A DNA stretch of 59,804 nt from positions 1 to 59,804 of the forward strand of contig JALHRC010000006.1 of assembly GCA_022841645.1 (NCBI GenBank), read 5' to 3'. The notes under the pieces were generated by a model. It saw nothing but the letters and a program-made list of their open reading frames with translations. It had not been told where the DNA came from and made no database searches. The position numbers and the translations under genes were made by a program. Positions 3,462 to 48,698 of the stretch are shown piece after piece (the stretch's first letter is position 1; each line of letters opens with the position of its first letter). The stretch comes from Minisyncoccota bacterium (GTDB lineage Bacteria; Patescibacteriota; Minisyncoccia; Phycocordibacterales; UBA918).

Positions 3462-4991
3462 TTACCGTGCGTAACTGATCACCCGGGTCTCACGAATAAC
3501 GTGGACTTTGATTTCTCCTGGGTAGCGGAGCTTGGCCTCGATGGTGTCGGCGATGGTTTTGGCCAGAGCGTGCGTCTCGATGTCGGTCATGGTTTCGGGA
3601 TTAACGAGCACACGTACTTCACGGCCAGCGGCGATGGCGAAGGCTTTGTCGACACCCTTCAGTGCCGTCGCGATGCCTTCGAGGTCGGAGAGGCGCTTTA
3701 CATAGTTTTCAAGCGAATCGCGCCGCGCCCCTGGGCGAGCCCCTGAAAGAGCGTCGGCCACCTGCACAATGATCGATTCAGGTGTTTCGTACGGATACTC
3801 TTCGTGGTGAGCGCGCATAGCGAGGATGACCGCGTCACTGACGTTGTACTTCTTTAAGATACGGATACCGATCTCGACGTGGGTACCAGCCACTTCGTGA
3901 CTCACCGTCTTGCCGATATCATGAAGGAGGGCACCAGCGCGGGCAATTGCCACGTCAGCACCCACCTCCTCAGCAATGATGGCGGCGATATGCGCCATTT
4001 CGACAGAGTGCCAGAGCACGTTTTGGCCGTAGCTGGTGCGGAAGTGGAGACGACCGAGGATCGCGAGGAGATCGGGATGGAGGTTGGGTACCCCAGCGTC
4101 GTAGGCGGCCTTTTCACCCATTTTGCGCACGGTAGCGGCCACTTCCTTGCGGGCGGTATCGACACACTCCTCGATTTTCGCTGGCTGGATGCGACCATCT
4201 TTAAGAAGGGCTTCGAGGGCGACGCGCGCTATCTCGCGACGAATCGGGTCAAATGAAGAAAGCACAATGTAGCCGGGTGTTTCGTCCACGAGCACATCGA
4301 CGCCGGTAGCGTGTTCAAAGGCGCGCACATTGCGTCCCTCGCGGCCAATCACTTTGCCCTTAAGGTCGTCAGAAGGAATTTCCACGTGCGAGGTCATCAC
4401 GTTGGTGGGCATGTTGTTGCCGACCCGGTGAATGGCAGCGAGGAGGAGGTTTTGTGCGCGGTCTTCGTATTGCTCAGCTCCAAAGCGCTCGAGTTTCCCA
4501 ATACGAGCTTGCAAATCTTCCGCATACTCCGCCTCCATTTTAGTGACCACGCGGGCGTAGGCTTCTTCGCGTGAGAGACCAGCCACCTCTTCAAGCTTTT
4601 CTTCAATCTCTCCCTTGCGTTCATCAAGGCGCTCTTTGATAGTTTTTATCTCTGTCACTTTTGCTTGGAGTGACTCACGCTGTGAATCGAGGTCGATTTG
4701 GCGTGCATCCAAAAGCTCCTCACGTTTTTGGAGGTGTCGTTCCTTTTCGGTAAGGCGGTCTTCGGTGGCGGTTTTCTGTGCGGTGGTGGTGCGCTCGAGC
4801 TCGTCGGCTTTGGCCTCGGCCTTCTCTAGGACGGCGCGGGCTTTGTCTTCGGCCTCCAGGAGCTTGGTTTTGATGTCGAGCTCCAGGGAGGTTTTTTTGG
4901 CGAGGGCAAGGAGGTAGCGGGCGTAGTAGCCAACGATAGCTCCTATAATGAGCGCCACCCCGAGCGAGAGCCAGGGAAAGGGTGGTGGCAT
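3462..4991 (-). CDS. rny: ribonuclease Y
   Basis: 509 aa. It has an N-terminal TM helix, a coiled coil, a KH motif (VIGREGRNVRAFE) and an HD domain (LLHDIGK). Confidence 0.95.
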   Translation of the reverse strand: MPPPFPWLSLGVALIIGAIVGYYARYLLALAKKTSLELDIKTKLLEAEDKARAVLEKAEAKADELERTTTAQKTATEDRLTEKERHLQKREELLDARQIDLDSQRESLQAKVTEIKTIKERLDERKGEIEEKLEEVAGLSREEAYARVVTKMEAEYAEDLQARIGKLERFGAEQYEDRAQNLLLAAIHRVGNNMPTNVMTSHVEIPSDDLKGKVIGREGRNVRAFEHATGVDVLVDETPGYIVLSSFDPIRREIARVALEALLKDGRIQPAKIEECVDTARKEVAATVRKMGEKAAYDAGVPNLHPDLLAILGRLHFRTSYGQNVLWHSVEMAHIAAIIAEEVGADVAIARAGALLHDIGKTVSHEVAGTHVEIGIRILKKYNVSDAVILAMRAHHEEYPYETPESIIVQVADALSGARPGARRDSLENYVKRLSDLEGIATALKGVDKAFAIAAGREVRVLVNPETMTDIETHALAKTIADTIEAKLRYPGEIKVHVIRETRVISYAR

Positions 4992-17309: not shown

Positions 17310-19052
17310 ATGCAGTTTTCCCCTCGCGCTGCCCGTGGCTTCTCACTGATAGAAGTGGTAATCGTCTCGGCGGTACTACTACTCTTTTTTGGAGGCTTGT
17401 TCGTGCTGGTGGAATATGTATTTAAACTGAGCACTAACGCGCGCGCGCGGCTTAGTGCCCTTTCGCTTGCCAATGAGCGGATGGAGTATATTCGCTCACT
17501 TACCTACGATGCGGTGGGAACGGTGGCTGGTATTCCAGCTGGAAACATTCCGCAAAATCGTACTCGGACGTTTAATGGCTATCTTTTCAACGAGCGTGTA
17601 CTTATCCAGTACGTGGACGACGACGCTGACGGACTCGGAGCTGCGGATAGTAACAGTATTCTGGCCGACTATAAGCAAGTAAAGGTTGAGTACTCGTGGA
17701 ATGTTACAGGAGCAACGACGTCAATTACACTCATTTCTAATATTGTACCGCGCTCGATCGAAACAACGGTCGGTGGCGGCACTATTCGGGTAAACGTGCT
17801 TGACGCGACAGTGTCGCCTGTCCCGAGCGCGTCCGTGCGGCTCCTCAATACCAGCGGCACCACCACGATTGATGTAACGCGGCAAACGGATGTCACAGGG
17901 ACGGCTCTTTTTGCTGGTGCGCCGGCGGGTTCTAACTACGAAATTTTTGTTTCAAAAGCTGGTTACTCGAGCGATCAGACACACATCGCAACAACTAGTA
18001 ATCCTAACCCGACCACACAGCCGATTTCTGTACTGGAAGCTGACGTTTCGACGATGAGTTTTCAAATTGATCAGCTAAGCAATATTAATCTCAGTCTCTA
18101 TTCGTCATTGGTAGAAAACTACATCAGTGAATCCTTCGTTAGTGCGGCCAGTATTGCTAGTTCCTCTAATCTCGCACCAGTGACTGGAGAGCTGGCACTG
18201 GCAGATGCTGGGGGTGGTCTCTACGTCACGTCCGGATTTGCGTTTACTCCCTCGCTGACGGCGTCAACTATGGAGCGTTGGGAGGTTGTATCATTAGGGC
18301 GTGTGCTACCGCCTGGGACGACACTGCGTACCCAACTATACACAGGCACCTCAACATTTGCCCTTATTCCCGATACTGATTTACCAGGAAACTCCACAGG
18401 ATTTACCGACCGCCTCATTCCGCTTACGACACTTGATCCGGTAGCGTACCCAGCGCTCGTGATCGGCTTTACCTTAGAGACGACGGACTCTAGTGTCACG
18501 CCACGGCTGACGGATGCGACAGTTCTCTTTCGAGAAAGTGCGACTCTGCGCTCGGGTGCAACTGTATCGTGGCGGGGAACGAAAAGCATCGGCACCGACC
18601 TTGGTGGGCTACCGATCTATAAACATCAATTTAGCGGCGTGACCAATGCGTCGGGCGAAGCCACATTTACTGACCGTGAGTGGGATAGTTACAGCGCTAC
18701 GATTACCGGTTCTACGATTACCCGCGCCTGTCCGGGGCACCCGGTCCCGTTACCACCTGGTACGACGCTGCCCGTCACGTTGGTCGCTACACCGGTCTTC
18801 ACCAATAGTCTGCGTATCAATGTAGTCGACCCTTCGGGCGTGCCGATCCCTGGCGCCGCCCTGCGCCTCTCGCGTACTGGCTACCTTAGTCAACGTACCG
18901 CTGACTCGTGTGGTTCCGTATTCTTTACGAGCATGGCTACTGAAAGTGATTACGTACTTGAGGTGACTGCTGGTGGTTTTACCACCTACAACCTCAGCGA
19001 TCTCACTATTTCTGGACCAATTGCCAGCACCGTAACACTCGTGCCGTTATGA
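17310..19052 (+). CDS. giant prepilin-type pseudopilin with two carboxypeptidase-regulatory-like (prealbumin-fold) segments
   Basis: It has a class III signal, RG/FSLIEVVIV, with Glu at +5. Segments IRVNVLDATVSPVPSASVRL...YEIFVSKAGY and LRINVVDPSGVPIPGAALRL...YVLEVTAGGF are present. Confidence 0.8.
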   Translation: MQFSPRAARGFSLIEVVIVSAVLLLFFGGLFVLVEYVFKLSTNARARLSALSLANERMEYIRSLTYDAVGTVAGIPAGNIPQNRTRTFNGYLFNERVLIQYVDDDADGLGAADSNSILADYKQVKVEYSWNVTGATTSITLISNIVPRSIETTVGGGTIRVNVLDATVSPVPSASVRLLNTSGTTTIDVTRQTDVTGTALFAGAPAGSNYEIFVSKAGYSSDQTHIATTSNPNPTTQPISVLEADVSTMSFQIDQLSNINLSLYSSLVENYISESFVSAASIASSSNLAPVTGELALADAGGGLYVTSGFAFTPSLTASTMERWEVVSLGRVLPPGTTLRTQLYTGTSTFALIPDTDLPGNSTGFTDRLIPLTTLDPVAYPALVIGFTLETTDSSVTPRLTDATVLFRESATLRSGATVSWRGTKSIGTDLGGLPIYKHQFSGVTNASGEATFTDREWDSYSATITGSTITRACPGHPVPLPPGTTLPVTLVATPVFTNSLRINVVDPSGVPIPGAALRLSRTGYLSQRTADSCGSVFFTSMATESDYVLEVTAGGFTTYNLSDLTISGPIASTVTLVPL

Positions 19053-19657
19053 GATACCCCTCCTCCCACCGTCACGGGATGACGCTTGTTGAAGTAATAG
19101 TGGTAATCGCGATCACCACCGTTTTGATGCTATCGATTACGAGTACGATTGCTATGTTGTATCAAACAAACGCCTACACGATTGCCCAGGCCGGGGAAGT
19201 GGACACTGCCCGACGCGGTTTGGCCACCTGGGTGCAAGACACGCGCGAAATGCTTCCCTCCGCTGAAGGCACCTGGCCCATGGTCATCATGGAACCCCAC
19301 CGCATGGCGTTTTACAGCGATGTTGATCGTGACCAGGTAATTGAACTGGTCATTTACCAGTTAGCAACGACAACTCTCTATAAATACACCTACGACCCAT
19401 CAGCCACCTCCTCGTACTCGACGTCTACTCCAAACGTCACTCTCATATTATCTGAATACGTACAAAATCTCATCCAAGCCTCAACAACCTTCCGCTACTT
19501 TGACACTGCGGGTAATGAGTTATCGACCGGTGATTTGCTCACCGATGTGCGATATGCAGAAATGTCGCTTATTGTGAATATTGATCCGATTCGCTCACCC
19601 GGAGAGTTTCTGCTGCGAGGCAGCGCCGCTCCGCGCAACTTAAAAGATAACCTCTAG
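19049..19657 (+). CDS. prepilin-type minor pilin
   Basis: It has an HG/MTLVEVIVV cleavage-methylation motif with Glu+5. Its start overlaps the preceding stop (ATGA). Confidence 0.8.
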   Translation: MRYPSSHRHGMTLVEVIVVIAITTVLMLSITSTIAMLYQTNAYTIAQAGEVDTARRGLATWVQDTREMLPSAEGTWPMVIMEPHRMAFYSDVDRDQVIELVIYQLATTTLYKYTYDPSATSSYSTSTPNVTLILSEYVQNLIQASTTFRYFDTAGNELSTGDLLTDVRYAEMSLIVNIDPIRSPGEFLLRGSAAPRNLKDNL

Positions 19658-25664: not shown

Positions 25665-26084
25665 ATGGAAAAAGTAATTATTTATACGGACGGTGGAGCC
25701 CGTGGCAATCCTGGGCCGGCGGCGATCGGCGTCTACATCACCGACGCAGCCGGGGGTGTTATTAAAGAGCACAAGCAGGCCATCGGTAACGCAACTAATA
25801 ATTACGCCGAGTATCAGGCGGTGATTGTTGCGCTCGACATCCTGCGCCAGCTCTACGGTGAAGAAACGCCCCGCATGGAATTTGAGCTACGCCTTGATAG
25901 TGAGCTGGTAAAAAAGCAGATTACCGGCGAATACCGGGTGAAAGAGCCGAGCCTCATGCCACTTTATATGGCGATTCACAACCAGCGCATTGATGATTTT
26001 CCCCATCTCACCCTTACCCACGTGCGTCGCGAATTTAATAAGGAAGCCGACCGCCTGGTGAATGAAGCCCTTGACGGGAAGTAA
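25665..26084 (+). CDS. rnhA: ribonuclease HI
   Basis: 139 aa with TDGGARGNPGPAAIG and NNYAEYQA motifs. Confidence 0.93.
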   Translation: MEKVIIYTDGGARGNPGPAAIGVYITDAAGGVIKEHKQAIGNATNNYAEYQAVIVALDILRQLYGEETPRMEFELRLDSELVKKQITGEYRVKEPSLMPLYMAIHNQRIDDFPHLTLTHVRREFNKEADRLVNEALDGK

Positions 26085-31187: not shown

Positions 31188-31601
31188 ATGGCCACCATTC
31201 AACAGTTGACCCGCAAAAAGCGCCGCGATCCGGTGCGCAAGAGCAAGACCGAAGTCTTGCACTGGGGTTTTAATAAAATCGAAAACCACCCCAACAAGTA
31301 CCACTCACCCTTCAAGCGTGGTGTGTGTACCCGTGTGACCACCAAGACTCCTCGTAAGCCAAACTCAGCTATCCGCAAGATTGCTCGTGTCCGTCTTAGT
31401 AACGGCAAGGAAATTACTGCCTACATCCCGGGTATTGGCCACAACCTCCAGGAGCACTCGGTAGTACTGGTACGCGGTGGACGCGTGAAGGACATCGGTG
31501 TCCAGTACACCATCGTCCGTGGTAAGTACGACGCAACGGGCGTTTCTGCTCGTCGCATGGGTCGTTCACGGTACGGCGCCAAAAAGCCTAAGTCGAAATA
31601 G
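31188..31601 (+). CDS. rpsL: 30S ribosomal protein S12
   Basis: It has the [31 protein letters not shown] signature. Confidence 0.97.
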
Positions 31602-31830
31602 GAAGACCACACGCCTCACGTGGCGTGTGCCCTGAAGTGTTCACGGGTCATTCGACCGGTGAGCGCTTGCGGACACGCGATACACAATAGTCTATATTCG
31701 CTACAGATACCGAGTGCCAGAACAATTGTTCGGGGCATTATGCGAAGAATGAGCGCCCAAGCGCCTTTCTCTTAATCGATGTACGACCGAGCGCGGCTGC
31801 GTAATTAACTACGTAATTAATTCAATAACT

Positions 31831-32304
31831 ATGCGTCGACCAATTAAGAAGCGACCGGTGGTAAGTCCAGATGTGCAGTACGGATCAGTCGATGTAGAAC
31901 GTCTCATTAACTATGTGATGCTCCGTGGCCAGAAGGAAACCGCCCGCAAGATTGTCTACAGTGCCTTTGAGGAAATGAAGAATGCTGGGAAGGAAGCGGC
32001 CGATCCACTGGAGGTCTTTATGACTGCGATGCGAAACGCTGGCCCCCTCATGGAAGTACGTAGTCGCCGCGTCGGTGGCGCAAACTACCAGGTGCCGCGC
32101 GAAGTACGCCCCGAGCGCCGCGTGGCGCTTGCACTCCGTTGGATCATCGGGGCTGCCCGTGGTCAGAAGGGTGTGCCGATGCACAAAGCCCTCGCGCAGG
32201 AGCTGATGCTCGCTGCTAAGGAAGAAGGCAACGCCGTGAAGAAGCGTGAGGATGTGCACAAGATGGCGGAGGCTAATCGTGCCTTTGCCCACTTTGCTTG
32301 GTAG
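31831..32304 (+). CDS. rpsG: 30S ribosomal protein S7
   Basis: 157 aa. It has [11 protein letters not shown] and a C-terminal [10 protein letters not shown]. Confidence 0.97.
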
Positions 32305-42612: not shown

Positions 42613-44781
42613 ATGGCCCGAGAGTTTCCCCTAGAGCGTTTGCGCAACTTTGGTATCGTCGCCCACGTCGATGCCGGCAAGACCACGACCTCAGAGCGTG
42701 TGCTTTTCTATACTGGTATGAGCCACAAGATCGGTGAGGTGCATGATGGCGCCACCGTGACCGACTGGATGGAGCAGGAGCGCGAGCGCGGCATCACCAT
42801 CACTGCCGCAGCGATTTCGTGTAACTGGTCAAAGACCGAAGTGGTGGACCGCAAGGACAAGTCGCAGATGTACACCTTCAACATCATCGACACGCCAGGT
42901 CACATCGACTTTACCGCCGAAGTGAAGCGTTCGATGCGTGTGCTCGACGGCGCGGTTGTCGTATTCGACTCAGTGGCGGGCGTTGAACCACAATCCGAAA
43001 CCAACTGGGGCTACGCTGACGAAGCGAAAGTGCCACGTATTTGTTTCATTAATAAGATGGACCGTCTGGGGGCGGACTTTGAAAAGTCGTATAAGAGCAT
43101 CTTGGAGCGTCTCTCCAAGAAAGCCGTGCGGGTGCAGCTCCCGTGGGGTGGGGAAGAGAACTTTAAGGGTGTGATCGACCTCGTGAAAATGAAGGCCTAC
43201 ACCTTCACTGGAGAAATGGGTACGCTTATTACCGAAGTGGAGATTCCTGACGAACTCCGAGCGGACGCCGAGAAGTACCACGCCGAACTCGTTGAAAAAG
43301 TGGTGGAGCACGACGACACGCTCATGGAAGCTTTCCTTGGCGGTGAAATGCCAACGCTCGAAGATCTCAAGAAGACGCTCCGCAAGGCGGTGCTCGCCAA
43401 CCAACTCTTCCCTGTCTTTACCGGCTCAGCGCTCAAGAACATTGGCGTGCAGCTCGTCCTTGACGGTGTGGTGGACTATTTGCCCGCGCCGACCGACCTC
43501 GCTGACGTAAAAGGTACCAACCCTGATTCTGGTGAGGAGGAAACTCGCAAGCACTCAGATGATGAGCCACTTTCGGCGCTGGCTTTCAAGGTGCAAGACG
43601 ACAAGTTTGGCCAATTAGCTTTCTTCCGCGTGTACTCCGGTACGGTAAAGGCTGGCAGCTACATCCTTAATGCTACTACCGGCAACAAAGAACGAGTGGG
43701 TCGAATTGTACGCCTTTTGGCTGATAAACGAACAGAGGTTGAAGAGGTGTATGCTGGTGAAATTGCCGCCGGCGTTGGTTTTAAGGAGGTAAAAACTTCG
43801 CACACCCTGTGTGATGAGGCAAAGCCTATCGTGCTAGAGCAGATCGTGTTCCCTAATCCCGTGGTCGCGATGCGTGTTGAGCCAAAAACGAGGAATGACC
43901 AGGAGAAAATGGGTATGGCGCTTAAGCGACTCGCGGACGAAGACCCGACCTTTAAAGTCTCGACGGACGATGAAACCATGGAGACCATCATTGCTGGTAT
44001 GGGTGAGCTTCACCTCGAAATCCTCGTGGACCGTATGAAGCGCGAGTTCGGTGTGGAGGCCAACGTTGGTGCGCCACAGGTAGCCTACCGCGAAACGATT
44101 CAGCGTGAAGCGGAAGCGGACTACAAGTACGCCAAGCAGTCGGGTGGTCGTGGTCAATATGGTCACGTCAAGATCAAGATTCGTCCGATGCAACCTTTGC
44201 CAGAAGGTGAGACCGTGCCTAAGAATACTACTCGTGACGATCACTACGAGTTTGTGAACTCAATCAAGGGTGGTGCTATTCCAAACGAATATATTCCAGC
44301 TGTGATGAAGGGGTGTAAGGAGGCGATGGCGCGCGGTTTTGTGGCCGGCTACAAGATGGAGGATGTTACCGTCGAACTCTACGATGGTTCCTTCCACGAT
44401 GTGGACTCTTCAGAAATTGCCTTCAAGCTCGCAGCAATTTATGCCTTTAAGGAGGCGGCAGCCAAGGCGGGAGCAGTACTCCTTGAGCCAATTATGAAGA
44501 TCGAAGTGCGTACTCCGGAACAGTTTATGGGTGACATCAACGGTAACATTTCGAGTAAGCGTGGCCAGGTGATTGGTATGGGTGAGATCGGCGAGAAAAA
44601 GGTCATTACTGCTACGGTGCCGCTGAAAGAAATGTTTGGATATACCACGTCACTACGAGGTATGACTCAGGGTCGCGCCAGCATGACCATGACCTTCGAT
44701 CACTACGAGGTCGTACCGCCAAACGTGGCTGCTGATATCCGTAAGGCGAGAGGCGTAAAAGACGTTGAAGAGGAGGCCTAA
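42613..44781 (+). CDS. fusA: elongation factor G
   Basis: 722 aa with [17 protein letters not shown] and all five EF-G domains. Confidence 0.98.
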
Positions 44782-44859
44782 GCCGACGTATGTCTTTTGC
44801 GGATCTTGTGAGCTATCTTTGTGAGCGAAGCGAAACAAAGTAGCCACAAGGTGTACTGG

Positions 44860-45068
44860 CCGCTGTAAGCGGTGAAGGATGTGGAAGAAGAAGCCTAAGT
44901 AGGCTTCGCCCATATCCGGCAAGACCTTTTGAGCTCGTTTGCCCGAAGGGGAAAACGAGCCAGAAGGCTAAAATAATCTGGGAGATTATTTTAGAAGGTT
45001 GACAGCTACTTTGAAAAAGTAGCGACAACCTGAACAGCGTCTGTAAGACGGACAGCTTCTGTAAGAAG
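44860..45068 (+). other. array of seven short hairpins (candidate structured RNA / 3' UTR)
   Basis: Stems lie at 44860-72, 44890-907, 44933-60, 44968-94, 45005-23, 45038-50 and 45056-68. Three have the identical loop TGTAA and two have a GAA loop. Confidence 0.6.
44872..44898 (+). repeat. pseudo-copy 2 of the fusA 3' end (VKDVEEEA-stop)
   Basis: gtg aag gat gtg gaa gaa gaa gcc taa compares with fusA 44755-44781, gta aaa gac gtt gaa gag gag gcc taa. All six differences are synonymous third positions. Confidence 0.85.
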
Positions 45069-45092
45069 AAAGACGTTGAGGAAGAAGCCTAA
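45069..45092 (+). repeat. pseudo-copy 3 of the fusA 3' end (KDVEEEA-stop)
   Basis: aaa gac gtt gag gaa gaa gcc taa has three differences from fusA, all synonymous third positions. Confidence 0.85.
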
Positions 45093-45116
45093 ATCAGCTT
45101 TCAGCAGTGGACTAGT

Positions 45117-45152
45117 AAACAGCGGGCGGCCCCTTGGGGCCGCCCGCTGTTT
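45117..45152 (+). terminator. intrinsic terminator closing the fusA unit
   Basis: aaacagcgggcggcccc pairs with ggggccgcccgctgttt. Confidence 0.8.
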
Positions 45153-46039
45153 ACGAGCCCCACCACCACACCCGCGTGGTCTCTACCGCGCGGGTGTGGT
45201 GATCATAAAACAAGTGCCGGCGGTGGCCAGATCTTCTACTGGCAAACTACCCCCGATCCTGTGCTCTTGGTACAGGGTAGTTTACAATTAGCCCACCATC
45301 TCTTAGACTTTAGGCTAGTGACGAAAACGTTCAGGAGGGAAAATGTTTAAGCCGTTTCCGTGTCACATTACCCCCCCCAAGAGTTCATGGAGGAGCGTAA
45401 TAAAGCGCGAAACATCGCGCTTGGCTGGACGCTCCGTGAAAGGCGCGGCCTTTTGGCGGTGTGGCCGGAGCTCAGTTACGCCCTGATTCTTCTACAGAGG
45501 GCTATCGTGAGGTGGTGTAGATGAATAAAAACGACCCCTCGAAGCAGCGAGCATTTCTGGCGGGACTCAGAAGAGCTGCCAGCAAGCTCGTGGCTAGGTG
45601 CCAACAAAATCCGAGATTCGCAAGGCTGCTGCTCAAGAGCCTTGCGCCGAAAGAGCCAAGAAAGCTACGATGGCGAAAGAAATGAATAGCGGTCGGCAGG
45701 TTCCCCTAGAAGCAGGGAGCCTGCCGGCCGCTCTAATGTTTGACTCCCATCTTCCATCCACAAACGTATCCTTGCATGGTCTGTGTGGCCCTGAATTATC
45801 TGTGTCCTCTAGAGCAAGCGACAGCTTGCATTTGCTGGCTGCTTTCTGTACTATTCCCACACCGTCACGTCTCCCCCAGTGGGTGGTCTCGTGAAGGAGC
45901 GACCATAATTGCTCTTTTACACGCTGGAGTGTGAAGTCTTCGCGCGCCTGTTCTCGCGCCGCGGCGACTCTACACTCACCACGTTATTCGTGGGAGGCTG
46001 TGAACGGTACTTATTTACCCTTAGTAGCAGTCTTTTAGT

Positions 46040-47239
46040 ATGACTACATTTGATCGCAGCAAGCCGCACGTCAACGTCGGTACTATTGGCCACGTCGACC
46101 ACGGCAAGACCACCCTCACCGCCGCCATCCTTAACACGCTCAACAAGCGTGGTAATGGGTACAACGCGAGCGTGAAGGGCGTCGAGGATATCGACAAAGC
46201 TCCAGAAGAGAAGGCCCGCGGTATTACTATCTCGCTCTCACACTCTGAGTACGAGACGCCAAACCGTCACTACGCGCACATCGATGCGCCCGGTCACGCC
46301 GACTACATTAAGAACATGATCACGGGTGCGGCGCAGATGGACGGCGCGGTACTTGTGGTGGCTGCGACCGACGGTGCAATGCCACAGACGCGTGAGCACG
46401 TACTTTTAGCGAAGCAAGTTGGTGTACCAAAGATCATCGTCTTCCTCAATAAGGTAGATATGGTGCCTGAACACGAACGGGAAGACATGATTGGCCTTGT
46501 GGAGGAAGAACTCCGTGAACTCCTTACCAAGAATGGTTTTGATGGTGCTAGCGCTCCAGTTATTAAGGGCTCGGGCCTTAAGGCACTCGAGGATCCCTCT
46601 TCTGAGTGGGGCAACAAGATCATCGAGCTCGTTGATGCGATGGACACGTACTTCCCGATGCCAGTACGTGATCTCGATAAGCCATTCCTGATGCCGATTG
46701 AAGACATCTTCTCAATTGAAGGTCGCGGTACGGTGGTAACTGGACGCGTAGAGCGCGGCGCGGTAAAGGTTGGTGAAGAAGTAGAAATCGTTGGTATCAA
46801 GCCAACTGCTGCTACTACTGTTACTGGTGTGGAAATGTTCAACAAGCAGCTCGATGCTGCCCAGGCTGGTGACAACGCTGGTATTCTCCTCCGTGGTGCC
46901 AAGAAGGAAGACGTGCATCGTGGCCAGGTACTCGCTAAGAAGGGTAGTGTTACCCCGCACACCGATTTTGAAGCTGAGGTCTACGTTCTCTCGAAAGAGG
47001 AAGGTGGTCGCCACACCCCATTCTTTACGGGCTACAAACCACAGTTCTACATCCGTACGACCGACGTAACGGGTGAGGTAACCCTCGCTGACGGTGTCGA
47101 GATGGTAATGCCAGGCGACACCGCGAAGTTTAAGGTGAAGCTCGTAGCGCCAGTTGCGCTCGAAGACCAGCAGAACTTTGCTATCCGCGAGGGTGGCAAG
47201 ACGGTGGGGGCGGGTGTGGTTACCAAGGTTGTGGCGTAA
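46040..47239 (+). CDS. tuf: elongation factor Tu
   Basis: 399 aa with GHVDHGKTT and DAPGHADY. Confidence 0.98.
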
Positions 47240-47618: not shown

Positions 47619-47625
47619 ACCAACA

Positions 47626-47677
47626 GCCCGACATACCAAAACACCCCTACCAAGGGGTGTTTTGGTATGTCGGGCTT
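47626..47677 (+). terminator. 23-bp perfect-stem hairpin directly after rpsJ
   Basis: agcccgacataccaaaacacccc (47626-48) pairs with ggggtgttttggtatgtcgggct (47655-77). Only a short T tract follows. Confidence 0.65.
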
Positions 47678-47741
47678 TACATAAATTCCTTGATAGTTTA
47701 CGTTACATCCGAAAGCACCTTCACAGAGCAGGAGAACTACC

Positions 47742-48155
47742 ATGCCAACGCTCACATTGAACCTGGAAGTAGATGAGGAGCTTCCCCGCCTTCAAGCGTT
47801 ACAATTTGTCAGGGATCCGGTGCGAAAACGACGCGTCGGTACTCGTGTACCACTCGTCGGGGCTGGATTACTCGGGCCACTTAAACTAACTGATCACGTT
47901 AGGGCACATTTGGAAACGGTGCTCGAGGCCATGAATAGATGGTCGCCGGAAGCTGCGCCAACAAAAATACTCGACTCTATTCTAGCGAATGGAAATAGAC
48001 CAATAGATGGGGTTATCCAAGGGTATGCCGTAGATCATTTGCGGGAAGAGCTCAATAGGGCCCTGCCTGAAGTGGGGCTTCGTTTCTCACTTCCACACCA
48101 CGGGCATAAAACCCAGTTGTGGGTTCGAGAGGTTAAAAGGTCGAAAAGAGGCTAG
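47742..48155 (+). CDS. orphan hypothetical protein inserted between rpsJ and rplC
   Basis: 137-aa ORF with a canonical SD (AGGAG, 7-nt spacer). It uses AGA, AGG, ATA and CTA codons. No motif. Confidence 0.6.
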   Translation: MPTLTLNLEVDEELPRLQALQFVRDPVRKRRVGTRVPLVGAGLLGPLKLTDHVRAHLETVLEAMNRWSPEAAPTKILDSILANGNRPIDGVIQGYAVDHLREELNRALPEVGLRFSLPHHGHKTQLWVREVKRSKRG

Positions 48156-48377
48156 TTGCTACCGCTATTTTGTACAGGGGCTATGTGCGATCAAGGGTGT
48201 CTTCGGATACACTTCGTGACAATACGCTGGTGGGGGATAACCCATGTGATACGCTTTTTGCAGAGCATCCCGTTTCCTCTGCGTCTAGCGTTGCGAGATT
48301 GATCGCATGTACGGGCTAATACCGCTCATATGGTCTTCGGATCAAAGCCAATTGGCGCCAGCCTCTGCCCACCCCTT

Positions 48378-48412
48378 TGGGTCCAGCTATACTACGCTGG
48401 ACCCCTTTTCTT
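48378..48412 (+). terminator. intrinsic terminator
   Basis: gggtccagc-tatactac-gctggaccc followed by cttttctttat. Confidence 0.8.
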
Positions 48413-48540
48413 TATCTAACCGAGGGCCACTTGCCCTTTTTTAAATATCGTGTAGAGTTGCGGGCAACGTATATAAGACCTACGTCCCCCCAAAAAATAT
48501 GAGGCTAATTACCTCGGGGAACCAATGGGCAGATGCACTT

Positions 48541-48582
48541 CCGCGGCTTCGTGGGGCACTGTCCCTGGGCCGCGGTTTTGTG
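48541..48582 (+). promoter_or_regulatory. attenuator-like hairpin + T-run in the rplC leader
   Basis: ccgcggc (48541-47) pairs with gccgcgg (48569-75), followed by ttttgtgt. It lies 113 nt upstream of the rplC ATG. Confidence 0.5.
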
Positions 48583-48612
48583 TACACACATTTATTTCCT
48601 ATAAGCAGCTAT

Positions 48613-48698
48613 TCATCCCGTTAGAAGTATTTCTATCTGGATGAGGTAACCAGCACCACGATTAGTATGATTATCAATAATAACTTCTAACGGGATGA
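48613..48698 (+). promoter_or_regulatory. 16-bp perfect long-range stem sequestering the rplC start codon
   Basis: tcatcccgttagaagt (48613-28) is the exact reverse complement of acttctaacgggatga (48683-98), which contains the ATG at 48695. Confidence 0.55.

Follow-up and report, generated by a model that had tools for sequence, protein, structure and literature searches.

Silent, synonymously diverged copies of the fusA 3' end in a hairpin array of a Patescibacteria clade, probable relics of recombination with diverged relatives

Results

The fusA gene, coding for elongation factor G (EF-G, 722 aa), lies at 42613..44781 of the + strand of contig JALHRC010000006.1 from a Minisyncoccota bacterium (Patescibacteriota; assembly GCA_022841645.1), whose 59,804 nucleotides were analysed as a whole and are referred to here as the window. 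According to the list of open reading frames (ORFs), its product carries a clade-specific C-terminal extension, GVKDVEEEA, and the gene is separated by a variable spacer of 1.26 kb from tuf (EF-Tu; 46040..47239, +), which forms the conserved right border of this spacer. A reading of the sequence together with a pattern search located three copies of the fusA end on the + strand, which we call tails. Tail copy 1 (44755..44781; gta aaa gac gtt gaa gag gag gcc taa) is the translated end of fusA and the 5' arm of a hairpin, T1. Tail copy 2 (44872..44898; gtg aag gat gtg gaa gaa gaa gcc taa) is silent and forms the 5' arm of hairpin T2, and tail copy 3 (45069..45092; aaa gac gtt gag gaa gaa gcc taa), which is also silent, adjoins the likely terminator of the transcript.

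The three tails share the pattern AAR GAY GTN GAR GAR GAR GCC TAA (44758-81, 44875-98 and 45069-92). Copies 1 and 2 differ at six positions, copies 1 and 3 at three, and copies 2 and 3 at four, and every difference is a synonymous change at a third codon position; these recomputed counts match those of the original prediction. If positions were hit at random, six changes in 27 nt would all fall on third positions with a probability of 2.8e-4 (0.028 for three changes in 24 nt), and the peptide and stop survived six random substitutions in 5e-6 of the simulations. The degenerate pattern AARGAYGTNGARGARGARGCCTAA has exactly 3 matches in the window and 0 in 100 dinucleotide-preserving shuffles. 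A chance product of purine-rich GAR repeats is not supported by these data, as the GAR run alone cannot explain a match in which the AAR GAY GTN codons and the GCC TAA end are kept as well. The three-copy pattern is real, recurrent and non-random. The original prediction had also held that copies 2 and 3 do not look like independent genes, and here the evidence from stops, frames and start codons agrees: our reading of the sequence confirmed that copy 2, which begins with GTG and shares the frame of fusA, is preceded by an in-frame TAA at 44866-44868, and that copy 3 lies in another frame, open from the TGA at 45012-45014 onward and devoid of ATG, GTG and TTG.

Every tail, 8-9 codons long, provides the 5' arm of a long hairpin (T), and the complementary 3' arm comes after the stop codon. 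Between tails there is a hairpin of variable sequence and kept pairing (X), followed by the motif GTGTACWG and by a hairpin U of the form NNN-CTGTAAG-NNN, which directly abuts the next tail, and the tail copies flank each T-X-U unit as direct repeats. The original prediction had missed both the place of each copy as an arm of a hairpin module and the highly structured nature of the array.

The closest EF-G homologues of the window come from metagenome genomes of Patescibacteria (Paceibacteria/Kaiserbacteria-like), with identities of at most 92%, and the window EF-G itself is known from a single contig. The extension, as GVKD[VI]..E[AE], is common to 120/120 of the nearest EF-G clusters and was found in this Patescibacteria clade only, more distant Paceibacteria and outgroup EF-G proteins lacking it and ending in ...RK or ...RG before the stop. 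The nucleotide identity of fusA within the clade is 72-81%, and the nearest relative of the window reaches ~81% in this gene. Related fusA loci compared with the window are given L-numbers (L001, L176 etc.); close relatives from the genome and metagenome scans were few among the matches listed. Comparable repeats are present in these loci, with 1 to 4 tails per locus. Four tails were found in L170 and L176, and three in L006, L111, L177 and L179, as in the window. Two tails occur in L001-L003, L007, L087-L091, L113, L180 and L182 among others, with the second copy decayed in a few of them, and one tail in L008, L086, L166, L167 and L178. In every clade locus that is long enough, tuf lies 364-2517 nt 3' of the fusA stop, and the content of the spacer (small ORFs, genes, modules) differs among relatives, so that it appears as a hypervariable region bordered by two very conserved genes. 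A scan of viral contigs with the tail pattern gave one match (...PGKDVAEEA and a stop), which was discarded as a chance match at the end of an unrelated phage gene.

When silent copies in the relatives were compared with the fusA end in use in their own genome, 54 differences fell on third, 8 on first and 7 on second codon positions; this tally was made by hand, leaving out three scan rows that were frame-shifted and four that came from near-duplicate loci. Differences per site are thus ~8-fold more frequent at third positions than at the other two (54 over one position against 15 over two), which indicates that most of the divergence dates from a time when the sequences were coding. Within one genome the tails usually share their peptide, and the codon before a silent tail is GTG, TTG, TTA, CTA, GGG or absent. 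Several silent copies are decayed, truncated or interrupted, as would be expected of relics.

The original prediction had raised the question of whether the silent copies occur as genuine ends elsewhere, and this is borne out for copy 2. In the window, copy 2 is identical at 25/27 nt to the genuine fusA end of L008, with a homologous flank. Together with its 3' arm and a GCAAGAC motif it aligns with the genuine end and flank of L008, L088 and L006, and the sequence that follows it (44899..44925) is also homologous in L176. For copy 3 the match is loose: with the terminator region it resembles the genuine end and terminator of the single-tail locus L167, and it is probably the oldest end at the site. 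Furthermore, the window unit that adjoins fusA (tail 1, X1, U1) corresponds in L176 to the silent unit in third place, and the place beside fusA in L176 and L180 is taken by the second unit of the window, so the order is reversed between lineages. Module B of the window (44958-45053) and L003 6233-6328 share 99% identity, in contrast to ~78% for fusA of the same two lineages; the unit that holds the module is not the same one in the two genomes, which implies a recent lateral exchange of this 96-nt piece.

Additionally, several loci preserve joints inside tails. The tail of unit 3 in L111 is a hybrid, with a left half of L170 type and, from GGATTAA onward, the genuine unit of L088 for >100 nt, and unit 3 of L170 is cut after GATGAGG. 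Element A, a 104-nt hairpin element with the core GGCTAGATTCGACCTTCAAGGGGAGAATCTAGCC, occurs at L002 6168-6271 and L001 6285-6388, and a second, rearranged copy with compensatory changes is found at ~L002 6391-6567. It sits after GAAGARGA in two different tails without target duplication: in L002 inside the real fusA end, where it changes the EF-G terminus from EEEA to EEDV, and in L001 inside copy 2, between GAAGAAGA and AGCCTAA, the window copy 2 being the empty site. L176 and L177 encode identical EF-G and differ by 1 nt in 5.8 kb, after which the final 355 nt of fusA hold 19 synonymous differences; one extra T-X-U unit of 139 nt follows in L176, and no further difference from L177 is seen for ~2.9 kb. 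This arrangement is a recombination tract anchored in fusA with its right end in a tail; L178 is ~94% identical to both loci in the tract and gives no polarity. The joints cluster in the GAR-rich part of the tails and do not fall at one position, and in L180 the junction lies after the tail.

A Pfam scan of 30 window ORFs and 10 small or unknown spacer ORFs of the window and its relatives revealed no recombinase, and none lies between fusA and tuf in the gene calls of 20 related loci. The proposal that the copies were left in the manner of att-site scars is supported as regards repeated recombination at the site; no integrase-bearing element was found between fusA and tuf in those 20 loci, and a homologous anchor with a short-homology joint fits better.

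In the fold of the 421 nt that stretch from the last codons of fusA up to the hairpin at 45109-45160, hairpins follow one another in a chain (-200.9 kcal/mol, z = -14.5). The genuine fusA tail is paired with a downstream arm in 19/22 loci, and in relatives the tip of hairpin T is often a hairpin resembling an intrinsic terminator. Covariation was assessed for X and U in a MAFFT/RNAalifold alignment and is claimed for the U hairpin, whose stem is formed by about nine different complementary sequences, and for the inner X stem only, as the outer X stem was aligned out of register in some sequences. A second type of connector, GAGCCGGAGCG...CTTGACCCT, serves in other lineages instead. Folding favours the sense over the antisense strand in 12/13 arrays, with more G-U pairs, which points to selection on RNA or on one DNA strand. 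Searches against Rfam 15 gave no match at the gathering score in the whole window, every match of an E-value search of the spacers of the window and L002 was below its gathering score, and a tRNA/tmRNA scan of the window found none. The hairpin modules may be new, of a kind without a match among known RNA families. By eye, the X-U part shares only GTAAG-CG with fusA in some lineages, and its reading as degenerate fusA coding sequence was rejected.

Within the window, the 3' arm of hairpin T1 (gccgacgtatgtcttttgcggatct; 44782..44806, +) was found by folding and is kept in L001-L003, and both the inverted-repeat search and the fold pair tail copy 1 with 44792-44806. Hairpin X1 (CTTGTGAGCTA..CTTTG / CAAAGTAGCCACAAG; 44805..44850, +), seen in the fold, is 100% identical to L003 over 52 nt and has homologous hairpins in relatives, in which the sequence is different and the pairing is kept. 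It is followed by the conserved GTGTACTG motif and hairpin U1 (CCGC-TGTAA-GCGG, 44860-44872), which together span 44851..44872 (+) and abut copy 2. The 3' arm of T2 with the GCAAGAC motif (gtaggcttcgcccatatccggcaagac; 44899..44925, +) is supported by the fold and by homologous sequence in relatives, and hairpin X2 (44926..44967, +), an inverted repeat that also appears in the fold, is 96% identical to the first L176 unit. On the same two grounds, the hairpins of module B were delimited at 44968..45052 (+), comprising B1 (44968-44994), X3 (44997-45030) and U2a (45038-45050). Hairpin U2b (CTTC-TGTAA-GAAG; 45056..45068, +) abuts copy 3, and the same junction is present in L006 and L180. A strong hairpin with 25-bp arms at 45109..45160 (+), recognised as an inverted repeat and in the fold, is likely the terminator of the fusA transcript; a simple terminator scan did not call it, owing to its short T-run. 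A second, G+C-rich hairpin with 17-bp arms, an inverted repeat, follows at 45164..45201, with no strand assigned.

Hairpins with the CUGUAAG loop lie at 44860-44872, 45038-45050 and 45056-45068 of the window and also occur in relatives. This 7-nt loop of hairpin U resembles a tRNA anticodon loop (C32, U33, GUA, A37), which may be a coincidence. At 44771-44843 of the window, a perfect AGGAGG in tail 1 is followed by a 17-codon ATG ORF (44791-44844), which was not retained as a gene because its ATG is not conserved in L001.

Several other observations concern the neighbourhood of the array. The sequence upstream of tuf at 45845-46039 (ctgtactattcccacaccgtcac ... tgctcttttacac ... gttctcgcgcc) is kept in L001-L003 and L167 and is likely the tuf promoter with a structured leader. 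Small spacer ORFs of 47-61 aa, without a Pfam match, are present in the window (45343-45486, 45521-45685), L001 (6540-6704), L002 (6721-6906, 7047-7208) and L003 (6787-6942), some of them with good ribosome-binding sites and a conserved upstream GTATGCTGGAAGTAGGGAAGGAG (L001, L002). Short repeats of another family, CTCGCGAAAATTCG...AAACAGAGTGGTCGTGCGCGG, are present in 3-4 copies on the minus strand of L088 at 3600-3800, where they adjoin an inverted X-U module upstream of fusA. The usual rpsL-rpsG-fusA-tuf operon is split, rpsL and rpsG (31188-32304) lying 10 kb upstream of fusA; the genes that split it include a glycosyl hydrolase, an ATP-binding cassette (ABC) protein, a cohesin-like protein, a VTT-domain protein and pentose-phosphate enzymes. 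In addition, rpsJ and rplC are ~1.1 kb apart (47619-48694), with an unknown 137-aa ORF at 47742-48155, and this gap, which holds other small ORFs in L001, may be a second variable spacer in a conserved operon. Farther away, a 139-aa ORF with RNase H / RVT_3 domains lies at 25665-26084, and a type IV pilin-like N-terminal methylation motif was seen at 19049-19657, which does not in itself show DNA uptake.

Discussion

The differences among the tails are best read as divergence that took place while the copies were translated in different lineages. We consider it probable, at roughly 0.6, that copies 2 and 3 represent former or foreign fusA ends, silent and displaced, which were brought together by recombination with diverged relatives. 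The original prediction had offered relics of diverged-lineage ends, left by repeated recombination, as one of its two possibilities, and the homology of copy 2, and much more loosely of copy 3, to genuine ends, the reversed order of units, the hybrid tail and the L176/L177 tract all speak for it.

From these recombination events we infer the uptake of foreign DNA and the following way of joining. DNA from diverged relatives would recombine into the fusA-tuf region with a left crossover in the conserved fusA coding sequence and a right joint where a tail offers a short run of identical bases, mostly in its GAR-rich part. A misaligned joint would put the incoming end and its T-X-U modules ahead of the resident end, or delete units, and arrays could thereby grow, shrink and be reshuffled. 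Each tail would have spent most of its history under translation in some lineage, which would leave the copies different at wobble positions only, and silent copies would subsequently decay or disappear. Since donors must be similar enough for the fusA anchor, they would usually encode the same slowly evolving peptide; a shared peptide together with saturated wobble sites, as the identity range of fusA suggests, would then account for third-position-only differences and for the same peptides within each genome. The hairpins would probably serve as a structure at the 3' end of the fusA mRNA.

Some observations weigh against displaced ends brought together in this way. The non-coding part of unit 1 is 88-96% identical between the window and L001-L003, compared with ~78-81% for fusA, and this conservation, along with the compensatory changes in the hairpins, suggests that the modules are not plain junk. 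In L182 a rare tail variant (...EAE with a TAG stop) is found in both copies, which needs either a very close donor or constraint on silent copies. The identity shared inside tails is 9-12 nt only, too short for ordinary RecA exchange, so that an illegitimate or enzyme-guided joint would be needed. Furthermore, the junction between the U hairpin and the tail is constant in many lineages and its first origin is left unexplained, and a tract cannot be demonstrated in the window itself, given that its closest relative is only ~81% identical in fusA.

A possible, if unlikely, alternative is that the T-X-U units are small non-autonomous mobile elements moved by a dedicated recombinase specific for hairpins of single-stranded DNA (Y1 HUH of the IS200/IS605 type, integron-like or tyrosine), each of them inserting just upstream of the resident tail and bringing its own surrogate fusA end, so that tails stack. 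The constant borders (GTGTACWG, NNN-CTGTAAG-NNN and the tail), the strong stem covariation and the strand asymmetry of folding would all suit such elements, as would element A, found at the same position of two tails with no target duplication, and the conservation of unit 1 beyond that of fusA. One X-U module, inverted and upstream of fusA in L088, lies outside an array in ~1.17 Mb of loci. Moreover, a 72-aa fragment of a Y1 transposase (Y1_Tnp, PF01797) adjoins rpsJ ~2.3 kb after the fusA stop on a contig of P0006, a relative with an EF-G identity of 87%, and the end of the EF-G/EF-2 gene has a precedent as a target of thaumarchaeal casposons (PMC4779613). However, the scans of 30 window and 10 spacer ORFs revealed no recombinase, and no Y1 transposase was among the window ORFs scanned; the 59.8-kb window holds no further copy of a module. 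Hairpins T and U sit at the two ends of a unit, and no short target is shared to the left of the junctions. The break points inside tails vary, and the 355-nt fusA tract of L176/L177 is typical of homologous exchange and not of site-specific insertion.

It is likewise a tentative idea that the units form an undescribed, locus-specific hairpin cassette, either a mobile replacement-end element or a modular regulatory array of the EF-G mRNA. Such a cassette would consist of a tail hairpin over the stop codon, a variable X and the conserved GTGTACWG with the NNN-CTGTAAG-NNN hairpin. In the mobile form it would supply a replacement end for its essential target gene and be handled by an enzyme that recognises folded single strands, and in the RNA form its partner would read the non-wobble bases only.

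We find it doubtful that all tail hairpins are working parts of the fusA 3' untranslated region, for example as binding sites of a protein or RNA partner specific to the real tail hairpin, or as stabilising and terminating structures. The partner would in this case have co-evolved with the coding target and ignore wobble positions, and the silent copies would be constrained at their non-wobble positions. The very low folding energy, the sense-strand bias with its additional G-U pairs, the compensatory changes, the conservation of unit 1 and the peptide usually shared within a genome, even in its rare variant, are in line with such a function. On the other hand, the number of copies ranges from 1 to 4 and single-tail relatives manage without an array, silent tails have in several cases decayed or been truncated or interrupted, there is no match to a known RNA family, and the hybrid tails, the reversed order and the recombination tract would be left unexplained.

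It is very improbable that the array is an assembly artefact in which a metagenome assembler concatenated the alleles of co-occurring strains. The window EF-G is known from one contig and the copies do look like strain alleles; nevertheless, the same architecture is found in independent assemblies, L003 (JGI) and L004 (Logan) agree, and L170-L174 come from five samples. The protein of L175-L177 is on 17 contigs, and of the 15 represented, 14 show the longer arrangement of L175/L176 and 1 that of L177. Moreover, the silent tails are preceded by a conserved hairpin module and not by fusA coding sequence.

Lastly, the other possibility of the original prediction, that silent copies are translated by readthrough, bypassing or short ORFs into alternative EF-G ends or mini-peptides, is scarcely credible: many silent copies keep frame, peptide and stop and copy 2 has its GTG in the fusA frame, but TAA codons at 44779 and 44866 interrupt that frame before copy 2, no continuous frame or recoding signal linking fusA to the downstream copies was found in the window, copy 3 lies out of frame and without a start, the codon before silent tails is inconsistent in relatives, decayed copies exist, and translation would change nothing as the window copies encode the same peptide.

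If silent, displaced ends are what the array contains, it would constitute a readable record of past exchanges between unculturable Patescibacteria lineages, in whose tiny genomes recombination can join repeatedly at the end of a highly conserved and essential gene. The fusA-tuf spacer could serve as a strain marker in the clade, and it exposes a family of covarying hairpin modules in which a terminator stem reaches into the last EF-G codons. It also calls for caution in annotation, where such repeats could be mistaken for alternative exons, short ORFs or misassemblies.

Several known systems share features with this array. Hairpin repeats of the REP/BIME (repetitive extragenic palindrome/bacterial interspersed mosaic element) and MITE (miniature inverted-repeat transposable element) types occur in 3' untranslated regions. 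They are alike in forming modular chains of imperfect hairpins after a highly expressed gene and over the stop codon region, whereas the modules described here are almost confined to one locus instead of being dispersed, with no matching transposase at hand. Duplicated gene 3' ends are known from phage 21 and e14 in E. coli icd, from tRNA-gene islands and from the accretion of integrative and conjugative elements (ICE) and cis-mobilizable elements (CIME), all of which integrate into a gene end and bring a surrogate end. The direct repeats of the end, the use of the copy adjoining the gene, the mostly synonymous differences and the tandem stacking are common to these systems and ours; in contrast, our array has no integrase or element-sized cargo, its units are hairpins of 90-170 nt, one event involves a long homologous fusA tract, and several break points fall within the repeat. 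An integron cassette array was rejected, as there is no IntI and the tail sequence GTTGAAG/GTGGAAG misfits GTTRRRY and varies between lineages, and so was a diversity-generating retroelement, as the differences are not adenine-specific.

The EF-G/EF-2 gene end is a known target of thaumarchaeal casposons, and tandem arrays with a repeated target sequence have been described for casposons at tRNA genes (PMC4779613). The repeated use of this gene end as an insertion site is a common trait, yet our locus is in a bacterial host, its repeats are diverged coding ends instead of identical target-site duplicates, and it has no Cas1, polymerase or terminal inverted repeats. A casposon was accordingly rejected: the 90-170-nt units have no ORFs, Pfam scans gave no Cas1 or family B polymerase domains, and there is no 14-15-bp target duplication.

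The recombination that we favour resembles that of minimal mobile elements, variable cassettes between conserved genes that undergo exchange through both transformation and homologous recombination, as described by Saunders and Snyder (2002, cited in PMC3787668). The fusA-tuf content similarly differs among close relatives, and flanking-gene recombination is seen in L176/L177; unlike in those elements, the right joint can fall in a 24-27-nt repeat inside the variable region and stack gene ends, which is not known to be described for minimal mobile elements. Homology-facilitated illegitimate recombination, as summarised in PMC6382021, has been reported in naturally transformable bacteria (de Vries and Wackernagel 2002, and others). 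It likewise combines a long anchor, here fusA, with a joint at a few identical bases, here the GAR-rich tail. Our case differs in that the process is deduced from sequence comparison, and in that the joints recur at one motif instead of being scattered over microhomologies.

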